Below, one piece after another: positions 2,927-62,200 of a DNA stretch of 64,000 nt. Below the pieces are notes generated by a model. That model saw only the letters and a program-made list of their open reading frames with translations. It did not search any database and was not told the DNA's origin. Position numbers and translations under genes: made by a program. The stretch comes from a virus (taxonomy: Duplodnaviria; Caudoviricetes): positions 2,712-66,711 of IMG/VR virus record IMGVR_UViG_2937460283_000002; one strand, given 5' to 3'. Each line of letters begins with the position of its first letter. Within the stretch, counting starts at the first letter, position 1.

Positions 2927-3087
2927 TTAGTTTGACTCAGTTGATTGTTTATAATCTACGGCTGCCTCAAACCATTCACATAGTTCAGGTTCAGTCAGCG
3001 CGTTGAGCTCGCTTAAGCCCCACCCAGTATATTTAGCCAGGGCAATAACCATGGCTTTTAAACGCTTGGGCGGGATACGAGAAAAGC
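2927..3087 (-). CDS. gpE'-like -1 frameshift extension of the tail assembly chaperone
   Basis: The -1 frame after GCT TTT C (3087-3081) reads FSRIPPKRLKAMVIALAKYTGWGLSELNALTEPELCEWFEAAVDYKQSTESN*, resembling the P2 GpE-family W..SEL..L...EL..W motif. Confidence 0.75.
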
Positions 3088-3315
3088 CTGTAGCTTCTCG
3101 CGTAATTTGACAAAGTCACTCCAGTCTAATTCTTCGATTACGTCTGGAGAAACTTCACACAGATTTGCAAAGTAGCGAATCTCACTCTCTGACTCACTCA
3201 AATCTGTTTTGTCCACCATTAAACGGTCACGTACTTTTGGTCGTCTCATTGTCAGTTGGGCATACTCATGCGCGTCGACCGTTACTGGGAAGTTTAGTTT
3301 AATGATATCTGTCAT
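3058..3315 (-). CDS. Tail assembly chaperone (P2 gpE / Mu gp41-like)
   Basis: LTMRRPKVRD...IEELDWSDF motif; lies between tube and tape measure. Confidence 0.85.
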   Translation of the reverse strand: MTDIIKLNFPVTVDAHEYAQLTMRRPKVRDRLMVDKTDLSESESEIRYFANLCEVSPDVIEELDWSDFVKLREKLQAFLVSRPSV

Positions 3316-3321
3316 AATTTA

Positions 3322-3831
3322 TTACGCTCCAATTGCAGCACGTAGTAGTGCCATTTGATCTTTACCGTTAATGATACGCGTGTCGTTGTATAGGTCGATG
3401 TCGTAGATAACATCTTGACCAATTTCAAGTTTGTACTTTTGAACCGCGTATTGAAGCGTTAGTTTTGCTTCTTCGCCATCTTTCCAGTTACCCATCTCAA
3501 CTTCTTTGAAGAAGCCTTCAAGTGTTACTTTAACTGGTACAGGCTCTTCACCTTGTGCTTGAATTGCACCACGCGCTGTAAGTGGTGTTGTTTTACCACT
3601 CCAGTCACCTAGTAGCTTCATCATGTCAGCGTTGTACTCAAGTAAAGTTACTGAACCTTCAAGCTTTTCAAGCTGACCCACATCAAGCTCAATAGGTGCT
3701 TGGAAACCCGATGTTACTTCACGAGTTTTAACCGTTACTTTTGGTAAAGTGATTTCGTCAGCAATACCTAAGTAGCCCTTACCATCAACGAATAACTTGA
3801 ATTTTTTTAAGATTTTAGGAGACATTGCCAT
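3322..3831 (-). CDS. Contractile tail tube protein (P2 FII-like)
   Basis: PKILKKFKLFVDGKGYLG...ITLPK...IDLYND..IINGKD, typical of FII. Confidence 0.95.
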   Translation of the reverse strand: MAMSPKILKKFKLFVDGKGYLGIADEITLPKVTVKTREVTSGFQAPIELDVGQLEKLEGSVTLLEYNADMMKLLGDWSGKTTPLTARGAIQAQGEEPVPVKVTLEGFFKEVEMGNWKDGEEAKLTLQYAVQKYKLEIGQDVIYDIDLYNDTRIINGKDQMALLRAAIGA

Positions 3832-4994
3832 TATACGATTTCCTCTAGGTAGTTGTTGGTTAGAATGCTCTTGAAGGTGATGTGCTCAGCCGGTGTTGGT
3901 GGTGTAAAATCAAAACTAAAGAACACTTTACCTGCTTGAATGTTTTCAGGGGTATTTAGGTCTTCATCCGCCCAAATTTGACCACCTAAAATCGCACCTT
4001 GTGCTTTTAATGAATCAAGGTAAGACTGCACGCTTTGCGTTACATCTTCGATGTAGGTTTTCGTGATGTTACGGTCAACCGCCCACATATGAGCACGTAG
4101 TAGTGAGTCGTTGATCATGTCCGCAGTACGAACGACTGATAGGAACGCCCATTTAGGGTCATCAGAACAGGTACGGTTACCCCACAGTTTAAAGCCGTTT
4201 TGACGGATAATCGTCGCCACTTCTTTTTCGTTTAGTAGGTTAGCGCGAGCGCTAGCATCGCCTAACTGGAAGTCAATTGGACGTGCTGTGCCAATAACAC
4301 CATTCATGTTAGTGTTGCTTGGGCTCCACCAAAAACCACGGTCGTTGTCAGATTTTGCAATCATACCCGCTACACGCGCACTGGCAGGCTCAACAACTGA
4401 ATTACCGTCTTTGAATACCTTAACGCCAGGGTCAACTACAAATACACGACGAGAGCCAAAGTCAGCACGGTACGCTTTAGCGTCATCATCATTTGTGTTA
4501 GGGCCGTCTGCGATAATTACGGCACGTAGACGTTCAGCAACGCCAATCATTTCTTTAACAACTGGATTTGCATTGCCCTCAGGACGTTGATGTGCATAAC
4601 CTGGCGCTACTAAAATACGCGGTGTAACACCCAGTACTGACTCTGCACCTAAGAATGCCTGTACACCTTCGTAAGTACCATCTGCAGCAACGCCACCAAC
4701 CATGTTAGACATAATTGCAGCTTCATCAGCACCTTCAACACGTACAACTACAACCACTGCACCAGCTTGGTCAAAAATACCATCCATTGCTGCTGGTAGT
4801 GTACCTTCTGTACCTAAAGGTGCGGCTTCAGCTCGTTTACCTGCAATTAATACAGGTGTATTAAGTGGAAATTTATCTGCATCTGCAGCTGGTGCTGTAC
4901 CAATAACACCAATTACTGAGCTTTTTACTGTTTTGATTGGACGAGTGCCTGATTGCGCCTCGATCACCTCTACACCATGTAGAAATTGTGACAT
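3831..4994 (-). CDS. Contractile tail sheath protein (P2 FI-like)
   Basis: FLHGVEVIE...SSVIGVIGTAP...GFWWSPSN...WGNRT...DFTPPTPAEHITF; AGGAG RBS before ATG at 4994. Confidence 0.97.
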   Translation of the reverse strand: MSQFLHGVEVIEAQSGTRPIKTVKSSVIGVIGTAPAADADKFPLNTPVLIAGKRAEAAPLGTEGTLPAAMDGIFDQAGAVVVVVRVEGADEAAIMSNMVGGVAADGTYEGVQAFLGAESVLGVTPRILVAPGYAHQRPEGNANPVVKEMIGVAERLRAVIIADGPNTNDDDAKAYRADFGSRRVFVVDPGVKVFKDGNSVVEPASARVAGMIAKSDNDRGFWWSPSNTNMNGVIGTARPIDFQLGDASARANLLNEKEVATIIRQNGFKLWGNRTCSDDPKWAFLSVVRTADMINDSLLRAHMWAVDRNITKTYIEDVTQSVQSYLDSLKAQGAILGGQIWADEDLNTPENIQAGKVFFSFDFTPPTPAEHITFKSILTNNYLEEIV

Positions 4995-5028
4995 ATGATT
5001 CTCCTTTAAGGGTATGTCAGTTAGAAAC

Positions 5029-5053
5029 AAAAAAACCACGCAAAGCGTGGTTT
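5029..5053 (-). terminator. Intrinsic terminator directly upstream of the sheath gene
   Basis: aaaccacgc-ttt-gcgtggttt followed by a U-run on the minus strand. Confidence 0.7.
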
Positions 5054-5097
5054 AAGATTTAAAAAATAATTGGGAGGTTAAGCCCAGTTTGTTGTGT

Positions 5098-5433
5098 TTA
5101 AACTTGAATGCCTTCAATTAACACGGGCTCGCCGTTAATTAAGTAAAGACCATTAATATCAATTGATAATTTTCCGCTACCAGCAGGTTGTACTGCTACC
5201 GACTCTAGGCGAAAACGTGGCTCCCACTTTTCTAATCCTTCAGAAATGGCGAGTGTAATGTCCCCAACCAAAGAGGTAGAAAAGGGTCTGTCGAGCAAGT
5301 CGAATAAACCACAGCCATAGTCACGGCGCATTACTCGACTACCGAGCGGCGTGGTGACTATATCGCGTATACTTTGTTTTAAATGCTCAACCCCAGAAAG
5401 AGGTCGGCCTGTTTGTGCATTCATGCCAATCAT
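5098..5433 (-). CDS. Baseplate protein gpW/gp25
   Basis: GMNAQTG...EHLKQSIRDIVTTPLGSRVMRRDYG...WEPR. Confidence 0.95.
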   Translation of the reverse strand: MIGMNAQTGRPLSGVEHLKQSIRDIVTTPLGSRVMRRDYGCGLFDLLDRPFSTSLVGDITLAISEGLEKWEPRFRLESVAVQPAGSGKLSIDINGLYLINGEPVLIEGIQV

Positions 5434-5448
5434 GCTTGGCCCTCCTTA

Positions 5449-5748
5449 CTAACCGCCAACGGTAAAGCTGCCCTCGCCTAACATCATTTTTCCACCGCAA
5501 TTTGTTGGGTCGCCTATTCTTGCGACGGCTTTACCCGCGATTGAAAAACTGCCAGCACCTTGAGATATTTTTTTACCAATGTGCTTTTGTTTAGGGTCAG
5601 CTATCATGCTGTGTGTACTTATTGAGTCGCCTTCACGTAAAGCAGACTTGCCTGCTACTGTAAACTTACTTTGCGTGGCGCTGGCACTGCCAGGTAAAAA
5701 ACCAACGTGCACATTAGTAATATGTCCATCCAATGAAATTGCTGGCAT
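5449..5748 (-). CDS. PAAR-like spike tip protein
   Basis: 99 aa with MPAISLDG, ALREGD..STH and VARIGDPTNCGG repeats; directly after gpV. Confidence 0.85.
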   Translation of the reverse strand: MPAISLDGHITNVHVGFLPGSASATQSKFTVAGKSALREGDSISTHSMIADPKQKHIGKKISQGAGSFSIAGKAVARIGDPTNCGGKMMLGEGSFTVGG

Positions 5749-5751
5749 AAG

Positions 5752-6462
5752 TTACTCCTGCGCACTAATGTGGCTACCATTAAGCTTAAGTGTTGCCGCT
5801 GCTTTAACAGCCACGTTGCCACCTGTAGATTCAATATTGACCACATCACCTTTGAGGTTAAGTGCATCCGTTGCCGTCACAGAAATGCTCCCCGTATTAG
5901 TGGTTAAACTGGCGTCCCCGTTTTCAACAGTAATGGTGGCGTTTTCCGTTACCGTGACATTGGCGTTGTTTTTCACAATCACGTTTAGGTCGTTGTCTGC
6001 TTCTAAAATAATGTCTTTGGCTGACTTGAGTTTAATTACCGCGGTATCTTGCTTAACATCAATTAAGTATTGGTGCTTGTTGCGGTCATACTCGAGCATT
6101 GAACCATCTTGGTACTTGGTGCGCTGTACATTAATACGCTCTTCCTTGGCAACATCACTCACCACTTTGTCGATGTTATGCGCTTTTTGATACACACTGC
6201 CGAGTACCACACCTTGGGCTAAGTCGCCACAGGGAGCTAATACCATCACTTGTTCGCCCACTTCGGGCGCTTGCCAAGTCATATCGTTAAACGCTTGATT
6301 GGTTAGCCATGGCAACCAAGTGGTGAGCCAATCACCAATTTTGACCCGTACCTTGGCTGTTTCGTAATCCACCTCATTCACAGTGCCAAGCGATATCAGC
6401 TTTGCCAAACGGCTTTGCATATCAGCCTGTGCTAGATTACTTTGCAGCGAATTAGCCAACAT
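5752..6462 (-). CDS. Baseplate spike gpV
   Basis: GTVNEVDYETAKVRV...TTWLPWL...APEVGEQVMVLAPCGDLAQGVVLGS OB-fold, then a beta-repeat C-terminus. Confidence 0.95.
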   Translation of the reverse strand: MLANSLQSNLAQADMQSRLAKLISLGTVNEVDYETAKVRVKIGDWLTTWLPWLTNQAFNDMTWQAPEVGEQVMVLAPCGDLAQGVVLGSVYQKAHNIDKVVSDVAKEERINVQRTKYQDGSMLEYDRNKHQYLIDVKQDTAVIKLKSAKDIILEADNDLNVIVKNNANVTVTENATITVENGDASLTTNTGSISVTATDALNLKGDVVNIESTGGNVAVKAAATLKLNGSHISAQE

Positions 6463-7060
6463 TATCCACCTCCGCAATCACCACTTCACCTTCAGCATTG
6501 ACGGTTGCCACATGATGATGCTCGCCCCCTTGTGGGCCTAAATACACGTCGGTAATGGTTGGCCCCGGCAACTCTTCTGGCGGCTCCACCTGATAGTAAA
6601 ACTCCCAAACTAGCTTGGCTTTGCCTATCATTGAGTCGCTTTGCTTGGTAAAAGCAAATTCGCTGTCTTTGGCAACAAAATGCTGCCAAGGAACGGGCAC
6701 ACCGTCTGCCTGCATCAAGGCTTCACCCGTATCAATCACAGTGTCCAAACGCTTAAGTAGCGCGATGCTATCGGCATCTTCCGCTTCTATGTCTAGTTGC
6801 AGCTTTAGCACTCTTCTATCGAGTGGGTTTGGGCTGAGGTTCTTGTTAGACGTAGGCCCATAGGTAACGCCTGAAGCGCTACCGGTACTTTGCAACTCAC
6901 TGGCTTGACGTTCTGATATCAGCGTGACACAAAGCTGCGCCACTTGCGTTAAATCTGGATACGGCAAGGTGTGTTTAATATGGCCAACTTGAGCCATACC
7001 TTGTAATCCAGACGTCAGGTACTCAAGCACCTTTTCAACTAGGGTACTGCGATGATTCAT
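6452..7060 (-). CDS. Hypothetical protein, possibly tail completion/terminator
   Basis: 202-aa ORF immediately upstream of gpV; the function call is positional only. Confidence 0.45.
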   Translation of the reverse strand: MNHRSTLVEKVLEYLTSGLQGMAQVGHIKHTLPYPDLTQVAQLCVTLISERQASELQSTGSASGVTYGPTSNKNLSPNPLDRRVLKLQLDIEAEDADSIALLKRLDTVIDTGEALMQADGVPVPWQHFVAKDSEFAFTKQSDSMIGKAKLVWEFYYQVEPPEELPGPTITDVYLGPQGGEHHHVATVNAEGEVVIAEVDNVG

Positions 7061-7139
7061 AGTGATTCTCTGATAAAATGCTCAGCGCTCAAAAAAGAGA
7101 GGCTGTAGGATTAACGGCGGACGATGTGCCCGAAGAGGG

Positions 7140-7391
7140 TTAAATAGCTGGCTTTTGTGGCCACACTACTTCGTCTGGGTTATCGAATGTTTGTGGTATA
7201 TCGCGAAGTGCTTGGCGGTAAGCTACAAACTCTTCAGGTAAAGCCTCTCCCACTTCTTGATGTTTTACCACAACCCAGTCTGTTGCTTTTAAATGTGCAT
7301 CGCGAATAGCTTTGACCGTTGCCCACTTACTTTCTGCTAACAATTGCTCTGCGGGCATTTGGTTTTCAAAATCGGATACTTGTGATTCCAT
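7140..7391 (-). CDS. Tail fibre assembly chaperone
   Basis: RDAHLKATDW...YRQALRDIPQ...VVWPQKP motif. Confidence 0.85.
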   Translation of the reverse strand: MESQVSDFENQMPAEQLLAESKWATVKAIRDAHLKATDWVVVKHQEVGEALPEEFVAYRQALRDIPQTFDNPDEVVWPQKPAI

Positions 7392-7393
7392 GA

Positions 7394-8200
7394 TTAGCTC
7401 TCCCAATGAGGTTTTTCTTGTGTAATGCGATTCGCTGACGGTTGTCCATTTAGAGATGTGTAATGTGTATCTACCGAGATTGCCCTAGTAGAGCCACAGT
7501 GTTGCCGCGTATCAACTTTAAGAGATACCCTTGCTATGCCATTATCATAACCTTGATTAATTGCTCTAAATAAAACTGGAATGGTCGTTCCTTCTAACTC
7601 ATTTGTCAGTAGAATTTCCTTTTCAGGATTCTCTGGCTCAGAAATAAAAATTGACACAGACTTATCATTAGCAACCTTCTTAACTTCTAGCTGACCAGCC
7701 ACAGAGTCATTAAAAGAGGTTCCTGTAAATATTAAATGGTCTGTATACCCATCAGAAGCAAACATTCCTCGGTGAGTCATCAAAAACTCAATTTTGAAAA
7801 AGTCGCCACCAGTCCCATATCCCGAATGAACAACCGAAGGTAGAAACTCCAACATGTTGATATAATAAGGTGGTTGTGGATTATTGCAGTATGGATAATC
7901 CGAGTCTGGACCATCCGCATCACCAGTCCAACCACCATTACCCAGTGTTGTTGCAAATGTAAAACGCTTTACATTTCCTTGTTTATAGACATTTATTCCA
8001 TTAATGTTTTCGACTAGTGATTCTTTCCACGTATCGAAAGCATTTTCAGCCGAAGTAACTTTTGTATCTACTTCAACCATTTTCGCCGACACTGTACTAT
8101 TAATCTCGCCGATTTTATCTTGTACTGTTTGGGTTAAGCCGTTGGCGGCGGTGACCACATCGGTCAACCGCTGCGTCATGGTTTTATCTTGTTCTGACAT
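7394..8200 (-). CDS. Putative fibre/receptor-binding protein (cassette 5)
   Basis: N-terminal coiled coil (LTDVVTAANGLTQTVQDKIGEIN) shared with other fibre genes, beta-rich C-terminus, followed by a chaperone. Confidence 0.65.
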   Translation of the reverse strand: MSEQDKTMTQRLTDVVTAANGLTQTVQDKIGEINSTVSAKMVEVDTKVTSAENAFDTWKESLVENINGINVYKQGNVKRFTFATTLGNGGWTGDADGPDSDYPYCNNPQPPYYINMLEFLPSVVHSGYGTGGDFFKIEFLMTHRGMFASDGYTDHLIFTGTSFNDSVAGQLEVKKVANDKSVSIFISEPENPEKEILLTNELEGTTIPVLFRAINQGYDNGIARVSLKVDTRQHCGSTRAISVDTHYTSLNGQPSANRITQEKPHWES

Positions 8201-8269
8201 GGGTATTCCTTATGTAAAATAAGTATTTTGTTTGCCGGTTTGCAATGCAAAAACGTGTAATTAGGCTTA

Positions 8270-8356
8270 GAGATCCTGACCTGCGTCAGGATGACGACGG
8301 GTGCGCCATATTCGTCATCCTAAACAACGTCACCCTGAACTTGTTTCAGGGTCATT
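8270..8356. repeat. REP-like palindromic elements
   Basis: gatcctgacctgcgtcaggatgac and gtcaccctgaacttgtttcagggtc; same family as other intergenic copies. Confidence 0.75.
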
Positions 8357-8401
8357 TTCAGCTTACTTCAAAGCTTTGGGTTAATCGTTCAGTGTATGTG
8401 T

Positions 8402-8444
8402 ATCTTACTGAATTTTATGATTTAAAACAGGTCAACTCTGACCT
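8402..8444 (-). promoter_or_regulatory. Conserved module promoter P1
   Basis: AGGTCAGAGTTGACCT, 21 bp, TAAGAT, 5 bp, TACACT. Confidence 0.7.
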
Positions 8445-8469
8445 CTAAAAAAGATTTAAAATCGGCCCT

Positions 8470-9015
8470 TTAAGCTTGCTCAAGCGCTACGATACGAAAC
8501 TCTTGCTCAACTTGGCGCTGCATGGTGTTCAATTGCACCATTGCCATATCGGCCAATTCTCTGTCGACAATAATATTGAGGTTATCAACCCCCACTTTCA
8601 CTTCAACACTGTTAGACGGTATTTGTGCCAGTGATAAGGTCAACCACTGCAATACTTTTACATCGGGTGTGCGGTAGCCAAGGGTGGTATCTGGTTGTGA
8701 ATACACGCCCAGTAAAATAAGCTCTCCTGTGTCATCTGGTGACTCGATATAAACACCGATTTCACGAATCGCATATTCTAACGGCGCATCAAACTTAGCA
8801 GCAATTTTTAGCTCGCTGGTTTCACCATCACTGTAGTCAGTATCAACAATGGCAACACGCTCTTTTTCGCCTTTTAATGCGGTTTGTGTTTTGCTTGGTG
8901 TATAGGCTGCATCACCAAAAGCCATATGACTAATTTTGCCTTTAAAGCCTCGGTGAGTTGCGCTAAGTAGCGCATTTAAACCTGCTTGGGTAAATTGCAA
9001 GGTAAGTGCTGACAT
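8470..9015 (-). CDS. Tail-collar fibre adaptor (DUF3751-like), cassette 5
   Basis: FTQAGLNALL...ISHMAFGDAAYTP...IREIGVY; only 181 aa, ending in a short coiled coil. Confidence 0.8.
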   Translation of the reverse strand: MSALTLQFTQAGLNALLSATHRGFKGKISHMAFGDAAYTPSKTQTALKGEKERVAIVDTDYSDGETSELKIAAKFDAPLEYAIREIGVYIESPDDTGELILLGVYSQPDTTLGYRTPDVKVLQWLTLSLAQIPSNSVEVKVGVDNLNIIVDRELADMAMVQLNTMQRQVEQEFRIVALEQA

Positions 9016-9956
9016 TAAGTCGCTCCTTGTAAAGTTAAATGATTAAATTGAATACGTGTAAGCAAAGCCGCAATACCTTGTGAGATTGCTGCAGGTTCTG
9101 GCTTTACCCCTAACCACGCAGCCTGATATTCGCAGTTTGCTATTGCGCTTTTACCTGCCAACGCACAGCCCAATGCAGCTGTTGAGCTTGCAGGCTTTAT
9201 ACCTTTAAACTGCGCATCGTTATCAATCGCTGCAATGCCTGCCTTAGCGCCAAAACCTGCCACTAAAAACCCGTTTGAACCGTTGGGTCTAACGCCCTCA
9301 AACTGAGCCTGTTTATCGCTTGCCCCAACGCCTTGTTTGGCCCCCAAAAAAGCCCCCGAGAATAACGCTCCATCATCGGGGTGTACGCCGTTAAATGCCC
9401 CATCCTTGCTGGCAAGTCCAATCCCTGCACCACTAAACAACCCGGTTCCAAATTGTTCTTTTAAAGAAATGCCCAGTTGCACTTCAACATGCACTGATGC
9501 GCGTTTGGCTGTCTCTACAATGCGTTTAACCTGCTGCAACATCGCTTTGGTAAGCAGGCCCTGCGCGTTGGTGTCTAGGTTTTGATTCACGAGCGCCTGT
9601 ACCACCACCGTGCCACGCTGTGCGTCTTCGCTTTGCCACCACTCTTGAATGTCAGTTTCAATGCCCAAACTATCAAGGGCTTTTTCAAGTGCGTATGGCG
9701 TGGCTTTATAACGATGTACTTCAAATGCATCAGCAATCACTTGGCGTTTATTTTTTTCGCTCCATGCATCATGCCAATCATCCACCGACAGCGACCACGC
9801 CAGCCATGGTAATAACTGTGCCGGGCACTTTTGTGGATGCCAAATATCATGTAAAAGCTGAGTCTGATCTGGATAGGTTAATAACTGCGTGAGTGCTTGT
9901 TGTAATTTGCTGGCATTGCTGGGCAGTAACTTGGGTAAGTTAGCAAAGTTATCCAT
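9015..9956 (-). CDS. Baseplate/tail protein gpI-like, cassette 5
   Basis: LLPSNAS...WHPQKCPAQLLPWLAWSLSVDDW...HRYKAT; repeated C-terminal F.GV.P units. Confidence 0.9.
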   Translation of the reverse strand: MDNFANLPKLLPSNASKLQQALTQLLTYPDQTQLLHDIWHPQKCPAQLLPWLAWSLSVDDWHDAWSEKNKRQVIADAFEVHRYKATPYALEKALDSLGIETDIQEWWQSEDAQRGTVVVQALVNQNLDTNAQGLLTKAMLQQVKRIVETAKRASVHVEVQLGISLKEQFGTGLFSGAGIGLASKDGAFNGVHPDDGALFSGAFLGAKQGVGASDKQAQFEGVRPNGSNGFLVAGFGAKAGIAAIDNDAQFKGIKPASSTAALGCALAGKSAIANCEYQAAWLGVKPEPAAISQGIAALLTRIQFNHLTLQGAT

Positions 9957-10847: not shown

Positions 10848-10865
10848 ATGCACCTCTGACGGCCA

Positions 10866-10894
10866 ATAAAAAAGCCCACTTGAATCAAGCGGGC
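10866..10894 (-). terminator. Leader terminator upstream of gpJ cassette 5
   Basis: gcccgcttgattcaagtgggc followed by tttttt. Confidence 0.75.
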
Positions 10895-10969
10895 TAATTG
10901 GTTGGATAATGGAACTGTTATAGTAAATGCTCGTGTTTAAGCATTTAGTTAATCATTCAGTATATGTGT

Positions 10970-11012: not shown

Positions 11013-11036
11013 GAGAAAAAGAATTAAAACTCACTA

Positions 11037-11669: not shown

Positions 11670-11700
11670 AGGCTATAGTCGTTTTGAAACTCGATACCCC

Positions 11701-54375: not shown

Positions 54376-54914
54376 TACAGCACTCCTTTTTGAGCAAGTT
54401 CTTGATAAAGTTTTACGGTGGTGAGGTTGGTTTCTAGCTGCGAGGCCAGCATCTCGGTTTGTACTTGGGTCATATGTAAAAACACATCGTCGTAATACAG
54501 ACGCAAGTCGCCATCATGAGTCACGGTAATCGCATCATGCGGTGCTGCACTGAGTAATAAGTCAAACCCCTGCACCACGGTGGCCATTGGGGTAAGGTAA
54601 AACAGCACGTTTTCAGGGTGTGACCAAACGGCAAATAAAGTACCGTCTGATAAATAAAAGCCAACTTCTTTGACGCTATAGCTGGTGTCACTGGTAAATT
54701 TACCCGACACCCTAAATTGGCCGTTGTTATAATCAACGCCCTCGCCTGTTGGCACGCGGTCGCGTTCGTTTTGTAACTGGGTTTGTGTCCGGGTCGGCGT
54801 GTAGCCTTTATCACCCACAGCAATATGGCTTAGGTGCACACTCAACCCTTTTTCTTTAGCATTCACTGCGGCGTTCAAGCCCGCCTGTGTAATGATAGGT
54901 TGGTAAGAACTCAT
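54375..54914 (-). CDS. Tail-collar fibre adaptor, cassette 2
   Basis: ITQAGLNAAV...LSHIAVGDKGYTP...VKEVGFYLSDGTLFAV. Confidence 0.85.
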   Translation of the reverse strand: MSSYQPIITQAGLNAAVNAKEKGLSVHLSHIAVGDKGYTPTRTQTQLQNERDRVPTGEGVDYNNGQFRVSGKFTSDTSYSVKEVGFYLSDGTLFAVWSHPENVLFYLTPMATVVQGFDLLLSAAPHDAITVTHDGDLRLYYDDVFLHMTQVQTEMLASQLETNLTTVKLYQELAQKGVL

Positions 54915-55738
54915 GTTATTTCCATCGTTAATATTTGAAATGTGGTACTGCCTGACACTGTATCGACATACAAGTCAGACATATCGAATTGAATAGCTTG
55001 ATTTTGCTTTAAACTACTATGTGCAATGTGCAGTTGATTACCCCCACTGTTCGCATAAACCGTAACAGGCTCTAACAGCGACTCTGTATTTTGGCTAAGC
55101 TGTTGCGTTGCAAGTTGAATGTGGTTATTTCTGGCACTCACATACAGGTTGTTTTGCTCAAATTGCCCGTCGGCATTTTGCTCAAGCGCTGCTTGGGTAA
55201 TTTGTGTGGCCGTACTCACTGGCGAAAAATACAGCTGGTTTTGCACTATATTGCCAATGTGAAAGTCTATTTGCGTACGGGCTGGCTTGTTTGCCGCCAC
55301 TGCACGCCAAAGTTGGGCTTGCAGTTTTGGGGTGATAAAGGTATCACCATTTTCATCAAGGTTATGAGTGGCTAAGGCCACGATGGTTGCGGTGTGGGGT
55401 GCGCCCCCAGTTTGCCACCACTCTTGCAGCTCAAGCTCAGCATCTAGTGCGCTGAGTGATTGTTTTAAAGCACCAAATGTGCCCTTAATTCTGTGGCTCG
55501 GTACACTGTCTGCGATAACTTGGCGTTGAATATGCTCAGGCCAATTACTATCCCATGTATCTACACTCAAGCCATGGGCAAGCCAAGGTAAAAAGTGCGC
55601 AGGACACTGCCATGGGTTCCAAAGGTGCTGCAAGGGCACCGGCAGTTTTTCTATTCGCGCCGCTGCGCCCGATAAACCATGCTCTAACAGCGAACTACTT
55701 ACAGGCAATAATGGGTCATATTGTGTAGCATCAGACAT
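54911..55738 (-). CDS. gpI-like tail protein, cassette 2
   Basis: LWNPWQCPAHFLPWLAHGLSVDTWD...HRIKGT...EWWQ. Confidence 0.92.
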   Translation of the reverse strand: MSDATQYDPLLPVSSSLLEHGLSGAAARIEKLPVPLQHLWNPWQCPAHFLPWLAHGLSVDTWDSNWPEHIQRQVIADSVPSHRIKGTFGALKQSLSALDAELELQEWWQTGGAPHTATIVALATHNLDENGDTFITPKLQAQLWRAVAANKPARTQIDFHIGNIVQNQLYFSPVSTATQITQAALEQNADGQFEQNNLYVSARNNHIQLATQQLSQNTESLLEPVTVYANSGGNQLHIAHSSLKQNQAIQFDMSDLYVDTVSGSTTFQILTMEIT

Positions 55739-56732
55739 CTCGCTGTGCCTCAATTGATACCTCTATACTTTCGCAATGCGCCACTTCGTTTGCGGCAACA
55801 AAAATATCACTAGTAGGCGAGAGCAGCTCAACACGTTGCACGCCGGCGCCGTGTAAAACAGCATATAGACCCGACAGCGAAATATCATGGTTAAATTTAC
55901 GATGTTGTTTTAGCCAGTTTTTGCAGTTTGCCATCACCGAGGTATGAATTTCGTCGCTATTTATACCCGGATACAGGTGCAATTTAGCTTTGATAGCAAA
56001 TGGCTTAACCGTGGGTTTGAGTAAGTTAACCCTATCGGTCAAAGGGCGAATATTGTCTTGGTTAAGCACCTCGTAGACTTTTGCAATAACCATATCTGAT
56101 GGTGTGCCATCCCCTTCGTCACTGAGCAAAGTAATTGCCACGTCACCGGGCATAGGGTTTTCAAGTCCAGCATTATAAGTGTTGGTTAGCAACATAGTGC
56201 CGCTTGGCACTTGTTCTGCAAGCTCCGCTGGTGGCAACAGCATCACAAACTCTGGCGCTTCAATAAACACATCTTGAATATGGTTTGACGCTTTAAAACA
56301 ATGAAAGGCATACGCTCCTTCGGGGCCTGCGGTGCTAAACCCTTCTAATGCTAATTGAATGCGTGTACGAAAACGTTCGTCGCTTTCATATTCAATCTCA
56401 TCTGCAGGTAAATCATCACTGGCCTGATTAATAACAGCGCGCGTAACACCAAAGCGCTGACCTAAAAAGTCCAATTCTTCAGTGCTGGCTTTGGCAAGCA
56501 AAACAGCCTCTGCGCCTTCATTGATACGCTGACGAACTAACAGCTCTCTATATGTGAACGTTTCAATGAGTTTTACCACTGGATCACTTTCATAATTGAG
56601 CTGTGCGTCTGGATAACGAGTTGCAAAGTCAGCCATAATGGCTGTTTTTATTTCCTCGAAACTAAGTGGCTCAATAATCTCGGGCACGGGTAGTTGATTT
56701 AAGTCGATGGCACTAAAATTGGTTAAGCTCAT
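55731..56732 (-). CDS. Baseplate wedge gpJ-like, cassette 2
   Basis: IDLNQLPVPEIIEPLSFE...ESDP...FSTAGPEGAY...IRPLTDRV. Confidence 0.93.
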   Translation of the reverse strand: MSLTNFSAIDLNQLPVPEIIEPLSFEEIKTAIMADFATRYPDAQLNYESDPVVKLIETFTYRELLVRQRINEGAEAVLLAKASTEELDFLGQRFGVTRAVINQASDDLPADEIEYESDERFRTRIQLALEGFSTAGPEGAYAFHCFKASNHIQDVFIEAPEFVMLLPPAELAEQVPSGTMLLTNTYNAGLENPMPGDVAITLLSDEGDGTPSDMVIAKVYEVLNQDNIRPLTDRVNLLKPTVKPFAIKAKLHLYPGINSDEIHTSVMANCKNWLKQHRKFNHDISLSGLYAVLHGAGVQRVELLSPTSDIFVAANEVAHCESIEVSIEAQRDV

Positions 56733-56997: not shown

Positions 56998-57372
56998 TTA
57001 TTCGCCCTTAAGCACTTGGCTTACACCATTTGCACGTTGACTGATTTCATCCATCACTTGCGCTTGGCCTTTTACTTGATAAGGGAACTGTAAGCTGCCC
57101 TCAGTCACTTGTTGCTCGATACCACCAATGGCGGCTTTTAGTGACTCTGTTGACGCGCGCATTTCTGCAAGGCTTTGCGCAGTGCTTAGTTTGTTGATAA
57201 AGCCACTTAGCTCGTTGAGTAGGATGTGTGTGGTGTCTGAGGTGGTGCCCAGTAGAGAGTCACTGTCAGCTACTTTTTTATTGATATTATGTCTAAACGT
57301 TTGTGTTTGCTGCTGTTTTAAAATTTCTGCTTGTTGCTGTTCAGATACTAGCGTTGCGATATTTGTTTCCAT
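56998..57372 (-). CDS. Hypothetical helical protein, probable fibre chaperone
   Basis: Follows a fibre gene; DSLLGTTSD...FPYQVKG motif. Confidence 0.5.
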   Translation of the reverse strand: METNIATLVSEQQQAEILKQQQTQTFRHNINKKVADSDSLLGTTSDTTHILLNELSGFINKLSTAQSLAEMRASTESLKAAIGGIEQQVTEGSLQFPYQVKGQAQVMDEISQRANGVSQVLKGE

Positions 57373-57383
57373 GATAATGCTCC

Positions 57384-57965
57384 TTATAGTGTTTCTTGCT
57401 CAGATCGAATAATTTCAATATCGCCGTGTTTATACAATCGACCATTGCCAACCCGCATTGTGTCTACTGAAAGGGTTAAATAATATTGATTTGTAAAGCT
57501 TAAGCGGCCATAAATATGACCATCGGAACCTTTATAAACGTGGGGTGTATGAGTACCTACAGTATCAACGTTAATGACATTCTCGACGACTTTATAGCAA
57601 TAGCCAACTAGAGTGGCATCTACTATTTTTCCTTCTCCATATGCATAACCTGTTATGTGTAGATGAAACATTGCATGGTCTGTATCGGCCTTAAATGGCA
57701 GTTTAAAGTGTAGGTTCGTCACACCTGAATCATTGGTAAAAAAGTTAGCAACATTGATAGCACGGGAGCCATAGCCACCATTACCAATAATAGAAAGCTG
57801 GTTTAGTTTGTCGTCTACTTTGCTATTGGTGCTGGTAATGAGTGAGTCTACTTCTACCGATTTACTCGCGACTCTTGCATCTATATCTTGAATTTTATTT
57901 TCTACAACGGTGGTAAGCTCTTCTGCTTTACCGACTAGCGTTGCAATATCTTGTTCTAAAGCCAT
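57384..57965 (-). CDS. Short fibre/receptor-binding protein (cassette 1)
   Basis: MALEQDIATLV coiled-coil N-terminus shared with 58516..59394; HFKLP...MFHLHITGYAYG C-domain. Confidence 0.65.
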   Translation of the reverse strand: MALEQDIATLVGKAEELTTVVENKIQDIDARVASKSVEVDSLITSTNSKVDDKLNQLSIIGNGGYGSRAINVANFFTNDSGVTNLHFKLPFKADTDHAMFHLHITGYAYGEGKIVDATLVGYCYKVVENVINVDTVGTHTPHVYKGSDGHIYGRLSFTNQYYLTLSVDTMRVGNGRLYKHGDIEIIRSEQETL

Positions 57966-58018
57966 TTGTTTTCTCCAACTCATGGTTTGCCATACTGCAA
58001 AATTGGCAGGGTTAAAAT

Positions 58019-58170
58019 AAAAAACCCGCTCATAGCAAAACACCAGTCGCGTATAAGATCCTGACCTTCGTCAGGATGACGATGTGGGATATATTTCACA
58101 TATTCGTCATTCTGAACTTGTTTCAGAATCTCATAACACTTAAATGGGAAGATTGAGCTAGTAAGCGGGC
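58019..58170 (-). repeat. REP pair inside a terminator-like stem
   Basis: cccgct (58025-30) pairs with agcggg (58164-69), with a U-tract. Inside are gatcctgaccttcgtcaggatgac and gtcattctgaacttgtttcagaatctc. Confidence 0.65.
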
Positions 58171-58207
58171 TTGTTTGGTTTAAGGTTTAAGGTTTAAGGT
58201 TTAAGAA

Positions 58208-58513
58208 TTATTCAGGTTTCGCGTAAGTTGCTTTGATGGCGTTTCGCTGAGCCAGCCATGCGTCTTTTGCGGCTGTGGCTTGCTCTGATGATTCACCAAA
58301 CTCAGTCACAGCTGCCATATAGTCAAAGAAAAGGTAATCACTTTCTTTACTATACTGGGCGCGTCTTAGCGTTTGTATTTCTTGTTCATTAAAAATAAGC
58401 TCGTAGTCGTCTGCTGCAACTTCGGCTTGCTTTGCAATATGTTCTGCGTGAGTGGCGTCTTTAATACCACCAGCAAAAATTTTGTTTGTTGATACTTGCT
58501 TTAGTACTGCCAT
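58208..58513 (-). CDS. Probable fibre chaperone
   Basis: RRAQYSKESDYLFF...WLAQRNAIKATY motif. Confidence 0.65.
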   Translation of the reverse strand: MAVLKQVSTNKIFAGGIKDATHAEHIAKQAEVAADDYELIFNEQEIQTLRRAQYSKESDYLFFDYMAAVTEFGESSEQATAAKDAWLAQRNAIKATYAKPE

Positions 58514-58515
58514 GA

Positions 58516-59394
58516 TTATGCTCCTTCATCTAATGCTGGGGCGGTATGAGAATATGGGTGACCCACGCTATCCGCCCAAATCATATTGTCACCATGATCG
58601 CCTGTGCCAACGTAAGGTAAAGCAATAGCCACTTTCATTTTGCCTAAGCCTCTAAAGTAAGGCTGATGGCACCCCCCCCAACCAGTACGTGTGGCATGTT
58701 TGTACTGCCAGCCTTTGCCAACATCATTGGCACTAACTCGAATATTTGCCGAACGGTTTTGTGACGGGTAGAACGCAAGACTCCCCGATTGCTCAAGCAC
58801 GTTAACCCAGCAACTAGCCTGAGTTAAAAATTCCCCTTTACTCCAACCGGTGAATGTTGGGCAGCCTTGGTTTAAAACAAATAGCAGCCCTAAGTTTTCA
58901 TCCGTAGTCATCCCTTTGGTTAGGTCAACATCGAATACTAAAATTCTGAAATTACTGCCGTAATAAGTGTCATTATCTGAGCGGTAGTTACCTAAAGCAC
59001 GATGAAATTCATTGTTTGGCTCAAAGCCATGCTCTGAAAGCATTTTATTTGTAAGCTTTGTCACCGTTGCAGTGCCCTCCGTGCCTTGGTAATAAAAGCA
59101 GCTCCAAGGCGCAGAATGAGACTGCATCACATCTACTGGTGTGCCAAAATCTTGATCTGAGTTAATTTTTGAAAAGAGCTTAGTATCAGATAAGTTGTTC
59201 GGAGCCAATGGCAACGCTTTTTGAAAACTGGCTATTTTACTCTCAACGGCTTGCTCCTTAGCCGCAAGCCTACTATCAATTTCTTGCGATTTTTGATTCA
59301 GCGTGCTCGTAATGTCTGCAATCTTGCTGTCTACCGTGTCTGTAAGTCGATCGGTTGAATCTATCAAGCGACCAATATCTTGCTCTAATGCCAT
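58516..59394 (-). CDS. Fibre/receptor-binding protein (cassette 1)
   Basis: MALEQDIGRLIDSTDRLTDTVDSKI coiled coil, then a beta-rich domain. Confidence 0.65.
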   Translation of the reverse strand: MALEQDIGRLIDSTDRLTDTVDSKIADITSTLNQKSQEIDSRLAAKEQAVESKIASFQKALPLAPNNLSDTKLFSKINSDQDFGTPVDVMQSHSAPWSCFYYQGTEGTATVTKLTNKMLSEHGFEPNNEFHRALGNYRSDNDTYYGSNFRILVFDVDLTKGMTTDENLGLLFVLNQGCPTFTGWSKGEFLTQASCWVNVLEQSGSLAFYPSQNRSANIRVSANDVGKGWQYKHATRTGWGGCHQPYFRGLGKMKVAIALPYVGTGDHGDNMIWADSVGHPYSHTAPALDEGA

Positions 59395-59420
59395 GATATT
59401 TCCTTTTGGTTTTTAAAAAT

Positions 59421-59441
59421 AAAAAAACCGCTCAAAAGCGG
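59421..59441 (-). terminator. Intrinsic terminator
   Basis: ccgcttttgagcgg followed by ttttttt. Confidence 0.65.
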
Positions 59442-59464
59442 CCTCGTATATTTACTGCTTGTAT

Positions 59465-59779
59465 CTAATGTGAGTCGTCGCAATATCGTGCCTGAATCGC
59501 AGTACGTGCATCTAGCCATAGTTTTTTAGCGCTAACGGTTTGTTCGTGACTATCACCATATTGTGCTTGCATGGCCAGATATTTAAATGCAAGTCCGTCA
59601 GATTCCATTTGATATGCATGGCTTCTTGCTGCTTTACATTGTGCTCTTTTTTGGATCTGCTTGGCTTGTTCAAAGGCGGCTTTAGACGCTAAAGGCACAC
59701 ATTGTGCTCCTAATGTATGAGTATTATCATTACCTTGTTCAGTTTCCGCATTGATTATCATTTGTTGTAATTCCTGCAT
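59465..59779 (-). CDS. Probable fibre chaperone (paralogue of 58208..58513)
   Basis: RSHAYQMESDGLAF...WLDARTAIQARY. Confidence 0.6.
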   Translation of the reverse strand: MQELQQMIINAETEQGNDNTHTLGAQCVPLASKAAFEQAKQIQKRAQCKAARSHAYQMESDGLAFKYLAMQAQYGDSHEQTVSAKKLWLDARTAIQARYCDDSH

Positions 59780-59815
59780 CGCTATCCTTCCTCTCACTTA
59801 TTGATACAATATTAT

Positions 59816-60340
59816 TTAAAGTACACCCGCATCCATCAACGCAAATTTTTGCTTGAGGTGGCGGACCATATTGCCGATTTGTGCTGCGCCTAGTTTGGCA
59901 AGCTCGGGGGCAATTAAAATGTTGAGATTAACGCCTTGGTCAATCACCGTGATTGAGTCAGCGGGTACACCGGTTAGCACCAAGTCAAACGCCAGTAGCA
60001 AATCGACTTCGGCTGATTTATAAGCAATGGGTTTATCAGGATTTGAATAAACCGCAAACAAGGTGCCGTCTTCTAAGTAAAAGCCGACTTCGTTGACCCA
60101 AAAGTTATGGTCCGTGTCGTCAATCACACTCATATGAATTTGTGCGTTGCCTTTGTCTTCTCCACTGGCAACTGAAATTCGATGTACTTCTGCTTGTAAT
60201 GCACTGCGGCTTTGATCAGGCGTGTAGTTACCTGTGCCTAAGCCGATTTTGTTAATTTTGGCTTGAAAGCCATTTTTGTCTGAATTAAACACCGCCTCCA
60301 ATCCGGCGGTGGTGATGGTTGGCCGTAAAATTGTGCTCAC
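59816..60340 (-). CDS. Tail-collar fibre adaptor, cassette 1
   Basis: ITTAGLEAV...IGLGTGNYTP...VNEVGFYLEDGTLFAVYS; GTG start with GGAG RBS. Confidence 0.85.
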   Translation of the reverse strand: MSTILRPTITTAGLEAVFNSDKNGFQAKINKIGLGTGNYTPDQSRSALQAEVHRISVASGEDKGNAQIHMSVIDDTDHNFWVNEVGFYLEDGTLFAVYSNPDKPIAYKSAEVDLLLAFDLVLTGVPADSITVIDQGVNLNILIAPELAKLGAAQIGNMVRHLKQKFALMDAGVL

Positions 60341-60466
60341 TGCACTTACTCCTTGTTTCAATAGAAATAAAAGCAGTTACACGGCATGCACTGTGGTAAC
60401 TTACACCTAATTTGAAAGCCGCTGGGCAATGTGTGGGTAAACCAAAAAGCGATTGCCGAGAGGTAA

Positions 60467-61366
60467 CTACTTGTTTGGATATAGATAAAAGCGCCCAACG
60501 CTGATGCGCCGGTTACTAAAATGACAACCTGCTGCAAGCTGTGATTGCAAGTAGTAGCAACCCGCTGGCAGCTTTTGGTCGCTCGTCATATAAAATCGCC
60601 CTACCGTATGGCGCTGATTATTCAAATGTACGCCAAGCGCCACGGTATCTTGTAATCTTGCGTCAACCGCCTTTGTTGCCCCTCGCTGACGATTTACAGC
60701 GTAGCGCCCGTGGCTACTGACCGTTAAACCTGCCGTTATTTCGCTGGGGGCAGCCTTAGCAGGCAAGGTATTGTAGTTAATTCGCCCTACCTGCAAGCCA
60801 CTACTGGTGGTTGCAACCGTGATACCTAAATCTAGCTTAGCGCCAACTAAAAAGTTAAAGTGCGCTCGCTGTGGCTTGGTCTGGTTGGTCACTCGGTTAA
60901 TTGCTTTATAAAGCGCGTCAGATAGCGCGACTTGCTGACTGGTGTATACCTGCTCATTAGCCCAAGTGATAAAGGTAAAGGTATTTGGCTCTTTGCTATG
61001 TACTGGTATCAAAGCAGTGTTATCTACATCCTCAAACCATTCAAAAAATTCGATAACGACACCCAAAGACTTCAGTGCGCGTTTAACTGCGCCTACCGTG
61101 CCTTTGTGCTTATGAATGGCCACTGAGTTTTTGATCAGCGCACGTTTTGCCTCTACTGGCCACTGCTCATCCCAATCATCAACTGACAAACTCCATGCTA
61201 ACCAAGGCAATAATTTTTCAGGACAAGTATCAGGGTGCCAGTGCTTTGCAACATAATCAGGTATCGGTTTTACATCATCAAAGTAGGTCGCTCGCTCATG
61301 CGCTTGTTCAAACTTGCTGGCATTTGGCGCTAATAAAGACTTAAAGTCTTGTTTGGTGTTAGACAT
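60467..61366 (-). CDS. gpI-like tail protein, cassette 1
   Basis: LLAPNAS...WHPDTCPEKLLPWLAWSLSVDDWD...HKHKGTVGAV. Confidence 0.93.
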   Translation of the reverse strand: MSNTKQDFKSLLAPNASKFEQAHERATYFDDVKPIPDYVAKHWHPDTCPEKLLPWLAWSLSVDDWDEQWPVEAKRALIKNSVAIHKHKGTVGAVKRALKSLGVVIEFFEWFEDVDNTALIPVHSKEPNTFTFITWANEQVYTSQQVALSDALYKAINRVTNQTKPQRAHFNFLVGAKLDLGITVATTSSGLQVGRINYNTLPAKAAPSEITAGLTVSSHGRYAVNRQRGATKAVDARLQDTVALGVHLNNQRHTVGRFYMTSDQKLPAGCYYLQSQLAAGCHFSNRRISVGRFYLYPNK

Positions 61367-61375
61367 GCGCTGCTC

Positions 61376-62200
61376 CTACAAGTATTCAATGTTGATTGCA
61401 TCAGCCACTGCCGCTTCATCAATACCGCAAGGAAGATCATCCACAGGTTCAAAAAGCTTTACTTTACGAACGCCTGCCTGATGCAACATGTCGATAATTC
61501 CAGAATGGGGTATTTCTTGCCCTAGTTTGTAATGCTCACTAATAAAGGTCTTTAACTTGCGGTTGATTTGTTCACTGACCTGCGTTTTATCCGCTAACTC
61601 GTTTAAATAAACTTGTGCATTGATCTGGTAGGTCTTTGGCTCAACGTTATGCACTTTTACCAAGTCAGTTAATGGCCTAATGTCGTCATTATTTAAATGC
61701 GCTCTAACTTGGCTTATCACCTCAATTGGGTCGACGCCTTGTTGTGGTAACACTTTTACATCCACAACCCCTGGCATAGATGAATACACATAAACATCTT
61801 TTACATCTTGGCTAGCCGCCATGGTTTGGTATTCATAAGCGCCCATGGTGCCCGCCATACTATAACTCTCTAAAGACAGTGGAATACGCTGACGGTATCG
61901 CTCATCGTCTTCATTTTGTGAGCGCTCAACCCCAAATAAGCGACCTAAATGATCTAGGTCTTTACCTTTTGCGTAAGCTACCATCACTGAACGAGCCGCA
62001 TCATTGATACGTTGACGAAGTAATAATTCTCTTGTAGCCGCAATTTCTAACAATTTAACGGCAGGGTCAGACACCAACGGCGTATAATCCGGTAGTTCAT
62101 CGAGCAATGAATCGTACATTTGCTGATAGATTGCTTGGTAATCTAAATTTTCAATCACATCTGGCACCGCCAAGCGTGATAGCTCAATTGCATTGTTCAC
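61376..62200 (-). CDS. Baseplate wedge gpJ-like, cassette 1
   Basis: IELSRLAVPDVIE...SDP...RINDAA...SMAGTMGAYEY...IRPLTDLV. Confidence 0.93.
   Translation of the reverse strand: MNNAIELSRLAVPDVIENLDYQAIYQQMYDSLLDELPDYTPLVSDPAVKLLEIAATRELLLRQRINDAARSVMVAYAKGKDLDHLGRLFGVERSQNEDDERYRQRIPLSLESYSMAGTMGAYEYQTMAASQDVKDVYVYSSMPGVVDVKVLPQQGVDPIEVISQVRAHLNNDDIRPLTDLVKVHNVEPKTYQINAQVYLNELADKTQVSEQINRKLKTFISEHYKLGQEIPHSGIIDMLHQAGVRKVKLFEPVDDLPCGIDEAAVADAINIEYL

Follow-up and report, generated by a model that had tools for sequence, protein, structure and literature searches.

The wedge of a contractile baseplate is usually treated as a fixed, single-copy core part, with changes in host range being ascribed to fibres, tips, chaperones or spikes. 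Phage P2 (Peduoviridae) has one J gene within the order V-W-J-I-H-G-FI-FII-E-T-U-D, and peduovirus-type wedges come as one set of adjoining gpJ and gpI homologues per tail set. Pseudomonas aeruginosa carries a combined R/F pyocin locus, with contractile and flexible modules in one locus under a single lysis/regulatory head, the F module following the R module. The R2 pyocin of this species (PA0615-PA0628; 6u5b, 6u5f, 6u5h) is a headless, chromosomally encoded contractile tail with its own holin and lysozyme, and has one triplex set and one fibre. Here we describe a stretch of 64,000 nt (the window; positions 2,712 to 66,711 of the IMG/VR virus record IMGVR_UViG_2937460283_000002), which contains five sets of gpJ, gpI and fibre adaptor genes with a single contractile sheath gene. 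Judged by its genes, the locus is a headless R-type (P2/pyocin R2-like) tailocin, domesticated at a fixed site in Pseudoalteromonas. While this kind of tailocin is known, the multiplied wedge is new; the tandem heterologous wedge-plus-fibre modules, with an F-type tail module nested among them, form a conserved and so far undescribed arrangement.

A P2 structure preprint (2026) describes a wedge of two gpJ and one gpI, in which the C-terminus of gpI holds the N-terminal adaptor of the gpH fibre. According to the same text, gpW lies at the wedge core, where its contacts include gpJ, gpI, gpX and sheath, the triplex has further contacts with gpU and gpD, and the baseplate is threefold, with two non-equivalent wedge environments. 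Such a J2-I wedge holding its adaptor would explain why J, I and adaptor genes travel together and are multiplied as a unit in the locus described here.

The Pseudoalteromonas locus shares its protein families and wedge logic with P2, but lacks head, packaging, replication and integration genes. Like the R2 pyocin, it has a holin and a lysozyme, and encodes a collar/terminator, spike, sheath initiator, triplex, sheath, tube, chaperone, tape measure and hub. It differs from R2 in having five J/I/adaptor sets, in the position of V-PAAR-W after the wedge cassettes rather than before them, and in having PAAR as a separate gene and the adaptors as separate proteins of ~180 amino acids (aa). The adjoining gpJ and gpI homologues of the peduovirus-type wedge are both found five times (I4 being the weakest match), whereas sheath, tube and gpW of the contractile tail are found once. 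Contractile and F-type tails share one locus and head, as in P. aeruginosa, but the F-type module is here nested within the R-type wedge array; in one related genome (G045) it stands after gpD, as in Pseudomonas. Kosakonicin, the Pseudomonas Rp clusters and carotovoricin also carry extra receptor-binding genes that widen the target range, but in those systems it is fibres and chaperones or whole sheathed tails that are multiplied, or tips that are inverted by a recombinase, whereas the unit multiplied in Pseudoalteromonas is wedge, adaptor and fibre together, on a single trunk and with no recombinase. Type VI secretion systems with several VgrG/PAAR paralogues likewise combine alternative paralogous modules with one contractile machine (PMC13373197), but the alternatives of those systems are spike components that carry effectors, whereas those of the Pseudoalteromonas locus are wedge components that carry receptor-binding fibres.

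Five wedge triplets and a single contractile trunk

Nearly every long open reading frame (ORF) of the window is on the minus strand, as are all genes given by window coordinates below unless noted otherwise; ORF starts are approximate, being taken from the ORF listing. We scanned 64 ORFs of the window against Pfam and 37 against PHROGs. At five places a Baseplate_J gene, a Tail_P2_I gene and a Phage_tail_fib gene for an N-terminal collar/adaptor form adjacent ORFs (Pfam E-values of 5e-17 to 2e-22 for J, 1e-35 to 4e-39 for I except I4 with 7e-10, and 2e-5 to 3e-37 for the collars, all passing the curated cut-offs). Numbered in the order of transcription, with H for the adaptor, these triplets are found at 59816-62251 (cassette 1: J1 61376-62251, I1 60467-61366, H1 59816-60361), 54375-56732 (cassette 2: J2 55731-56732, I2 54911-55753, H2 54375-54914), 31129-33198 (cassette 3: J3 32293-33198, I3 31625-32296, H3 31129-31812), 25997-28519 (cassette 4: J4 27596-28519, I4 26655-27608, H4 25997-26572) and 8470-10853 (cassette 5: J5 9957-10853, I5 9015-9956, H5 8470-9015). 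The true start of H3 is probably an internal ATG near 31674, and J4 probably also starts at an internal ATG. Genes abut or overlap at six of the ten J-I and I-adaptor junctions, with 9-105 nt between genes at the remainder. All ORFs of the five triplets are intact, and the paralogues are strongly diverged, with pairwise identities of 26-46% for J, lower values for I, and 26-39% for the adaptors. A profile of the five J proteins matched the entire length of PA0618, the triplex protein of pyocin R2 (residues 2-288, 1.4e-86, search of PDB sequences). Conservation among the J paralogues is highest in the N-terminal half (approximately residues 41-160) and lowest in stretches of the C-terminal half, which is compatible with a shared docking surface combined with cassette-specific partners.

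Each triplet is followed by different distal genes. In cassette 1 (56998-59797) these are two fibre/chaperone pairs (292 and 101 aa, 219 and 124 aa) and a 110-aa chaperone-like ORF (phrog_8748, phrog_2432), with N-terminal ~50 aa in common with the cassette 5 fibre. Cassette 2 has a single 984-aa fibre (51421-54375; phrog_14489, 6e-193), a paralogue of the long fibres of cassette 4. The distal part of cassette 3 (28555-31129) contains two fibres of 221 and 141 aa headed by an Mtd_N domain (Pfam, 2.4e-10 and 1.7e-6) and ORFs of 326 and 172 aa, with matches to PHROG tail-fibre families in this part, while a 234-aa fibre-related protein ahead of J3 (33219-33923; C-terminal part of phrog_14489, 4.5e-17) is kept in the closest relative, G041, with a ratio of non-synonymous to synonymous substitutions (dN/dS) of 0.15. 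Cassette 4 continues with two long fibres of 1055 and 1130 aa (phrog_14489, 9e-223 and 1e-245), a 101-aa ORF and a 258-aa DUF4376 protein (18327-25987), a block which by synteny is an insertion relative to G042, G043 and G044, and with a fibre-network module (11986-18020) of a BW3TFN protein (17490-18020, 3.7e-56), a DUF4815 protein (15453-17480, 3.2e-137) and ORFs of 412, 98, 459 and 175 aa. Finally, cassette 5 has one 268-aa distal fibre (phrog_22727, 2e-132) with an 88-aa fibre assembly chaperone (Pfam Phage_tail_APC, 4e-19) at 7140-8200.

The three phrog_14489 fibres of ~1000 aa (19113-25987 and 51421-54375) share segments at 69-89% nucleotide identity and the cassette 4 pair is most alike, which suggests a recent duplication or gene conversion of these two genes. 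A fourth relative of this family adjoins a lambda-J-like gene elsewhere in the genome (G000:C12:482518-491360). Two known ways of diversifying fibres were considered and rejected. A diversity-generating retroelement would be suggested only by the Mtd_N head domain on two fibres, and no reverse transcriptase family was found among the ORFs scanned, in which small plus-strand ORFs were partly included. Switching by an invertible segment, as in Mu, P1 or carotovoricin, is contradicted by all genes of the locus lying on one strand, with no recombinase family found and the only inverted repeats of at least 30 nt being short hairpin elements.

In the window, sheath, gpV, PAAR and gpW are each present in a single copy by Pfam. 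The trunk genes downstream of cassette 5 encode the gpV spike (5752-6477; Phage_base_V, 2e-16), the PAAR spike tip (5449-5748; PAAR_motif, 8e-11), the gpW/gp25-like sheath initiator (5098-5433; GPW_gp25, 1e-17), the profile of which matches the pyocin R2 sheath initiator PA0617 (6e-33), the contractile sheath (3831-5039; Phage_sheath_1 and Phage_sheath_1C), the FII-type contractile-tail tube (3322-3831; Phage_tube, 2e-45), the gpE tail assembly chaperone (3058-3315; Phage_TAC_7, 7e-18) and a tape measure which extends past the left end of the window (1-2594; PHROG tape-measure families). The trunk continues left of the window with gpX (L001:18344-18592; Tail_X, 6.5e-18), gpU (L001:18573-19019; GpU, 2e-25) and a gpD-like hub (L001:17290-18333; match to pyocin R2 chain 6u5h_C, 9e-10). 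Within the tape measure gene, a 129-bp coding repeat (772-1574, ~4.6 copies, 92% identity) could vary the length of the tape measure and hence that of the tail.

A 202-aa protein encoded between cassette 5 and gpV (6452-7060) had no family match, its profile had no match among PDB sequences, and it was identified by fold search alone. An AlphaFold2 model built from 21 orthologues (mean predicted local distance difference test score 77) gave 45 Foldseek matches at E <= 1e-3, the best with an E-value of 2e-6. T5 p142, lambda gpU and the collar of pyocin R2 (6u5f_A) were matched with E-values of 2e-6 to 4e-4, and the Mu terminator and the diffocin collar are also among the matches. The protein was found in 39 locus sequences, all from Pseudoalteromonas, and is located upstream of V wherever checked. 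It is predicted to be the tail terminator/collar protein, which would complete the list of contractile tail parts.

Across the genome there are eight Baseplate_J matches: five in the window, one on contig C8 and two on C12. Those on C8 and C12 sit with their own tail genes, in a P2-like cluster and in other tail-like loci, respectively, and since the remaining J genes of the genome thus belong to separate tail loci, four of the wedge sets of the window are without a sheath of their own. The C8 cluster (G000:C8:661-12861) has the canonical order V-W-J-I-H-chaperone-sheath-tube-E-...-U-X-D with a single J, which is 51% identical to that of cassette 2 (adaptor 54%), and provides an internal contrast to the multi-cassette locus.

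The window (G000:C1:660021-724020) lies within a 1.06 Mb contig of a 5.08 Mb marine Pseudoalteromonas genome. In the direction of transcription it starts with a helix-turn-helix (HTH) regulator, a 128-aa protein, lysozyme, holin and an 82-aa protein, followed by cassettes 1 and 2, the F-type tail module, the 234-aa fibre-related protein, cassettes 3 and 4, a 1.1 kb repeat-filled gap, cassette 5, and then the 202-aa protein, gpV, PAAR, gpW, sheath, tube, gpE and tape measure, with gpU, gpX and the gpD-like gene beyond. Host genes follow on both sides, with a LysR regulator and aceK beyond the gpD-like gene, and an ABC-F ATPase, a PilZ protein and recBCD on the right. No capsid, portal, terminase or replication family, and no integrase, invertase or recombinase family, was detected in the window or within the 20 kb that adjoin each of its ends, and a prophage head hidden in the flanks was thus ruled out. 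An assembly chimera was also ruled out, given the position of the locus within a 1.06 Mb contig and the presence of the same layout in other species, on single contigs and on one complete chromosome.

These results bear out the core of the original prediction, which had proposed five intact, strongly diverged gpJ-gpI-collar triplets at these places, each with different fibre genes, no head, packaging or recombinase genes, and one contractile injector shared by five complete wedge-plus-fibre modules, and which had named assembly chimerism among the findings that would overturn it. Its statement that all trunk genes occur once stood for sheath, gpV, PAAR and gpW, but not for tube and tape measure, as the F-type module (34275-51135) contains another tube and another tape measure, both of the non-contractile kind. 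That module, the terminator at 6452-7060, the gpU, gpX and gpD genes outside the window, and the hairpins and junction repeats between modules had all been overlooked.

Distribution within Pseudoalteromonas

A search with the sheath returned 34 Pseudoalteromonas loci, including those of P. piscicida, P. peptidolytica, P. luteoviolacea, P. rubra and P. citrea, and 46 loci from other taxa. Several J genes (2-5) are present at the locus in 34 of the 34 other Pseudoalteromonas genomes with the sheath, this count and those that follow being among the matches listed. For typing, 147 J sequences from 35 genomes including that of the window were placed on a tree, with eight further matches lying outside the set. 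Five J genes are present in 12 of these 35 genomes, which were selected for holding the sheath and include several fragmented assemblies, four in 19 and three in 3, while one metagenome-assembled genome has two intact J genes and a split one. By type, J1 was found in 32 genomes, J2 in 31, J3 in 15, J4 in 33 and J5 in 33, with two of the 147 J proteins falling outside the five types. P. luteoviolacea HI1, a genetically tractable strain, holds a locus with four cassettes. Of 24 Pseudoalteromonas genomes drawn at random, four had such clusters, and no J of this type was seen in the other 20.

Full synteny was compared in five genomes (G041-G045), which have the locus at the same chromosomal site with the same ABC-F flank, and with the same head and trunk but different module content. 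The cassette order is 1-2-4-3-5 in G042 and G043, cassette 3 is missing from the otherwise intact locus of G044, and cassettes 2 and 5 from that of G045. As J2 and J5 are thus missing in one genome and J3 in another, no single primary wedge is seen among these three. In G041, cassette 2 is represented by a divergent allele (62% identity for J2, 40% for I2 and 52% for H2) between neighbours with 76-100% identity. The ortholog groups are kept across species whose sheath proteins are 69-96% identical. Comparison of cassette number across relatives, a check proposed with the original prediction, thus gave 2-5 J genes per genome, and the differences in presence, order and allele agree with its proposal that wedge and fibre genes are exchanged as whole modules.

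Selection on the cassette genes was estimated against G041, the closest relative (sheath 96% identical). The dN/dS values were 0.07-0.14 for J1-J5, 0.04-0.11 for I1, I4 and I5 (the I genes computed), and 0.02-0.17 for the five adaptors; for example, those of cassette 1 were 0.14 (J1), 0.11 (I1) and 0.03 (H1), and those of cassette 5 were 0.08 (J5), 0.09 (I5) and 0.02 (H5), compared to 0.05 for the sheath and 0.012 for gpW. All five cassettes are maintained by purifying selection, and no copy looks like a relic. The position of gpW among the most constrained genes of the locus fits a protein that may serve several partners.

Origin of the cassettes and comparison with other taxa

Outside the genus, none of the 46 loci had more than one J-I set in the 10 kb around the sheath gene. 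In 12 of the 13 outside loci detailed the gene order is (V)-W-J-I-(H)-...-sheath, with PAAR in two, and W precedes V in L081. Two adjacent J matches in the Rhodobacteraceae locus L036 and the Veronia locus L038 correspond to one gene each, which is probably frameshifted or split. Likewise, 74 of 80 IMG/VR loci related to J4 have one J, and two to four J genes are present only in the six closest (50-88% identity). Each phage record of the collection that matched J1, J2, J3, J4 or J5 did so at exactly one place (559, 565, 554, 512 and 568 records, respectively). The open full-text literature, to which the search was confined with subscription-only papers out of scope, described neither a tail with several J/I sets nor the Pseudoalteromonas locus; the phrase 'multiple baseplate', where used, refers to ordinary baseplate components, and a Marinomonas R-type bacteriocin is reported to have one J, detected in particles. 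The layout is therefore absent from the 512-568 phage records and the literature searched, as had been anticipated when it was put forward as an undescribed system.

A tree of J proteins with 129 library representatives (FastTree) showed J1, J2, J3 and J4 as ortholog clades with support of 97-100. The five types form three deep lineages (J1 and J2, J3 and J5, and J4 as the deepest-branching) with unrelated representatives in between. The nearest phage relatives are the ECOO78/ep3/Arya group for J1 and J2 (the single best match for J2 being Klebsiella phage KA2-1), P2-like enterobacterial phages for J3, Acidithiobacillus phage AcaML1 for J4 and Vibrio phage VHML for J5, and the best phage identities of 38-45% are about equal to the closeness among the paralogues. 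In elements of the betaproteobacteria Extensimonas and Tepidimonas, J4- and I4-type genes followed by BW3TFN, DUF4815, 412-aa and 98-aa genes form the sole wedge module, adjoining a gpW which is 46-50% identical to that of the Pseudoalteromonas locus. By these relationships the cassettes seem to go back to three or more lineages of P2-like phages, and the occurrence of one of them as a sole module elsewhere makes the array look like captured modules and not like the product of in-place duplication alone.

Signals and repeats between modules

Terminator-like hairpins with T-runs are located after cassette 2 (~51232), after the F-type module (34059 and 33972), after cassette 4 (11732-11711), and at 10895-10873, ~15 nt before the start codon of J5. 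As the trunk genes are downstream of every one of these, their transcription from the head of the locus requires read-through. Cassettes 4 and 5 are separated by a non-coding junction (10854-11985) with hairpin-repeat arrays and terminator-like hairpins. A nested hairpin family with the core CGTCAGAATGACG and variants is confined to inter-module gaps (2792, 8284, 11038-11968, 18063-18280 and 58069) and includes a 138-bp array of 4.1 copies and a 94-bp array of 2.3 copies. The 64 kb of the window contain six of the nine exact copies, and nine of the 24 copies with a relaxed motif, in the 5.08 Mb genome. The family is also present in G041, the closest relative, and was not found in G042-G045.

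The gap after cassette 4 also has a 13-bp unit, AACTCGGTTGAGA, repeated 7.4 times with 98% identity (11764-11859). A 117-nt element, each copy having a hairpin and T-run, occurs three times (8379-8495, 10947-11063 and 11865-11981; 70-81% identical), the copies bracketing the J5-I5-H5 triplet and the repeat array preceding J5; these elements could be recombination linkers or attenuators. The sole sizeable plus-strand ORF in this gap (10927-11211) lies wholly within the hairpin array, has no family match and is probably not a gene. Comparison of the regions upstream of the cassettes revealed no common promoter-like motif, only the hairpin elements, and when positions 1-20000 were scanned for generic promoters, shuffled sequence had more sites than the locus itself.

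Proposed function and alternative explanations

We propose that the cassettes are alternative wedge-plus-fibre modules, which probably compete for one trunk and thereby widen the target range. Each module would consist of the triplex proteins gpJ and gpI, an adaptor matched to gpI, and its own distal receptor-binding fibres and chaperones, with five such alternatives placed in tandem upstream of the hub genes between one regulatory/lysis head and one trunk. All modules may be co-transcribed with the trunk, and each may form its own J2-I wedges, where the abutting or overlapping genes would favour cognate assembly. As all of them would dock at the same sites on gpW, gpX, gpU and gpD, these wedges would be in competition, resulting in particles with an identical injector but different receptor-binding peripheries, and thus in a wider killing or binding spectrum. 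The modules seem to stem from P2-like lineages by capture, and whole units are gained, lost, reordered and replaced. More tentatively, heterologous wedges may dock side by side on one gpW/hub, so that particles are built combinatorially from up to five wedge types, giving mosaic baseplates that recognise several surface receptors simultaneously, or one operon yielding a graded mixture of specificities, a possibility to which we give less credence than to the competition itself. Several observations weigh against competition between modules: the retention of J1, J2, J4 and J5 in 31-33 of the 35 genomes may mean that all are needed together; the deep nodes of the J tree have modest support and come from FastTree only; the profile of the I4 family had no solved relative among PDB sequences, the Pfam match of I4 also being the weakest of the five (7e-10); the terminator-like hairpins imply read-through or antitermination, so that equal co-expression of the cassettes is not assured; and no RNA run was found to carry window positions 3000-12999, the sole match being a small share of a marine metagenome.

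Phages with several receptor-binding proteins usually bear all of them on each virion, and the locus could in the same manner encode one multi-fibre particle type, in which all J/I paralogues occupy defined positions in every particle, with wedge types alternating on the threefold hub or with the extra triplexes forming an outer fibre-bearing layer. The joint retention of four J types, and the two non-equivalent wedge environments reported for the threefold P2 baseplate, would both suit such a composite. We consider it unlikely, as six positions cannot be filled symmetrically by four or five wedge types, cassette number varies from two to five with different types missing in different intact loci, all five J proteins retain the N-terminal half, the part best conserved among paralogues, as expected of a core wedge protein rather than a peripheral addition, and the J4 set is the sole wedge in other bacteria. 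It would also be possible for only one of the cassettes to work, the other J, I and adaptor genes being leftovers of phage insertions which are decaying or kept by linkage to useful fibres. The heterologous ancestry of the cassettes and the junction repeats, which suggest insertion events, are in line with this, but we regard it as highly improbable given dN/dS values of 0.02-0.17 for the tested J, I and adaptor genes, the intact frames, the ortholog groups kept across species, and the lack of donor W, V, sheath or head fragments in the window; furthermore, cassette 5, the core-proximal one and thus the copy closest to the trunk, is absent from the intact G045 locus. Both a fixed composite and relics are disfavoured by the variation in cassette number, the absence of cassette 5 from an intact locus and the stand-alone J4 set.

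Expression could instead be regulated such that the trunk is made with one or a few cassettes at a time through terminators, hairpins and a putative antiterminator, leading to pure particles and bet-hedging in the population. This would give a role to the terminator-like hairpins at module borders and directly before J5, to the enrichment of the hairpin family at module junctions, and to the 128-aa protein which, as a lead only, resembles Q-type antiterminators. Such regulated choice seems rather unlikely to us, since all genes have the same orientation and, within cassettes, are closely spaced or overlap, no promoter motif common to the cassettes was found, and read-through is needed anyway for a trunk downstream of all terminators; the hairpin family, moreover, is limited to the window strain and G041, and the antiterminator lead lacks Pfam support.

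If one trunk does accept four or five heterologous wedge sets, conserved across a genus, the interface of gpW and hub with the triplex would be far more permissive than assumed, and contractile machines could be retargeted in evolution by swapping whole wedge-plus-fibre units. Should baseplates prove mosaic or combinatorial, this would be the first retargeting of a contractile injection system at the level of the wedge rather than the fibre. The locus makes the selection and ordering of wedges in baseplate assembly, pure or mixed, a testable question, and suggests how tailocins and similar injectors might be engineered for new targets or for several at once.

The nested F-type tail module

Between cassettes 2 and 3 lies a siphovirus-like, non-contractile F-type tail module (34275-51135; Pfam, PHROG), encoding a tube (50215-51135; Phage_tube_2, 1.4e-42), chaperone (49805-50218), tape measure (46553-49543), distal tail protein (45975-46562), hub (45367-45975), lambda-J-like central fibre (41076-45416) and a 1630-aa fibre (36181-41073). 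The tube, chaperone, tape measure, distal tail, hub and central fibre are thus all present without a sheath, and two further ORFs of 437 and 180 aa had no family match in Pfam, PHROG or NCBIfam. In G045 this module is located downstream of gpD. An identical 20-nt terminator-like hairpin, CGGTCAAACTTGACCGTTTT, flanks the module at 51298-51317 and 34061-34080, as if it had been inserted as a unit. The gene for the 1630-aa fibre contains alanine-rich coding repeats (38795-40542) with a period of 315 bp, 5.1 copies and sub-units of 63 and 21 bp, and this stretch is the only part of the window with >50% G+C.

Regulatory and lysis genes

The first gene of the locus encodes a small Cro/CI-like HTH regulator (63725-64000; sub-threshold Pfam HTH_31/HTH_3 and PHROG repressor families), which G042, G043 and G044, three of the five relatives compared, have conserved in the same place. 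It is followed by the 128-aa protein (63376-63762; phrog_27007, 1e-55), a candidate regulator or antiterminator for which the nearest ESM Atlas cluster (score 0.97) has Phage_antitermQ on 12% of its members. Identity as a Q antiterminator had no Pfam support at E-values up to 10, the search giving only a weak HTH_28 match (E 0.066). NCBIfam contained no family for any of 28 unassigned proteins. Downstream are a phage lysozyme (62950-63366; Pfam Phage_lysozyme, 2.4e-17), a holin (62552-62959; Pfam GTA_holin_3TM, 1.6e-10) and, between the holin and J1, the conserved 82-aa protein (62307-62555; phrog_24782, 4e-50), which is 82-100% identical in the five relatives.

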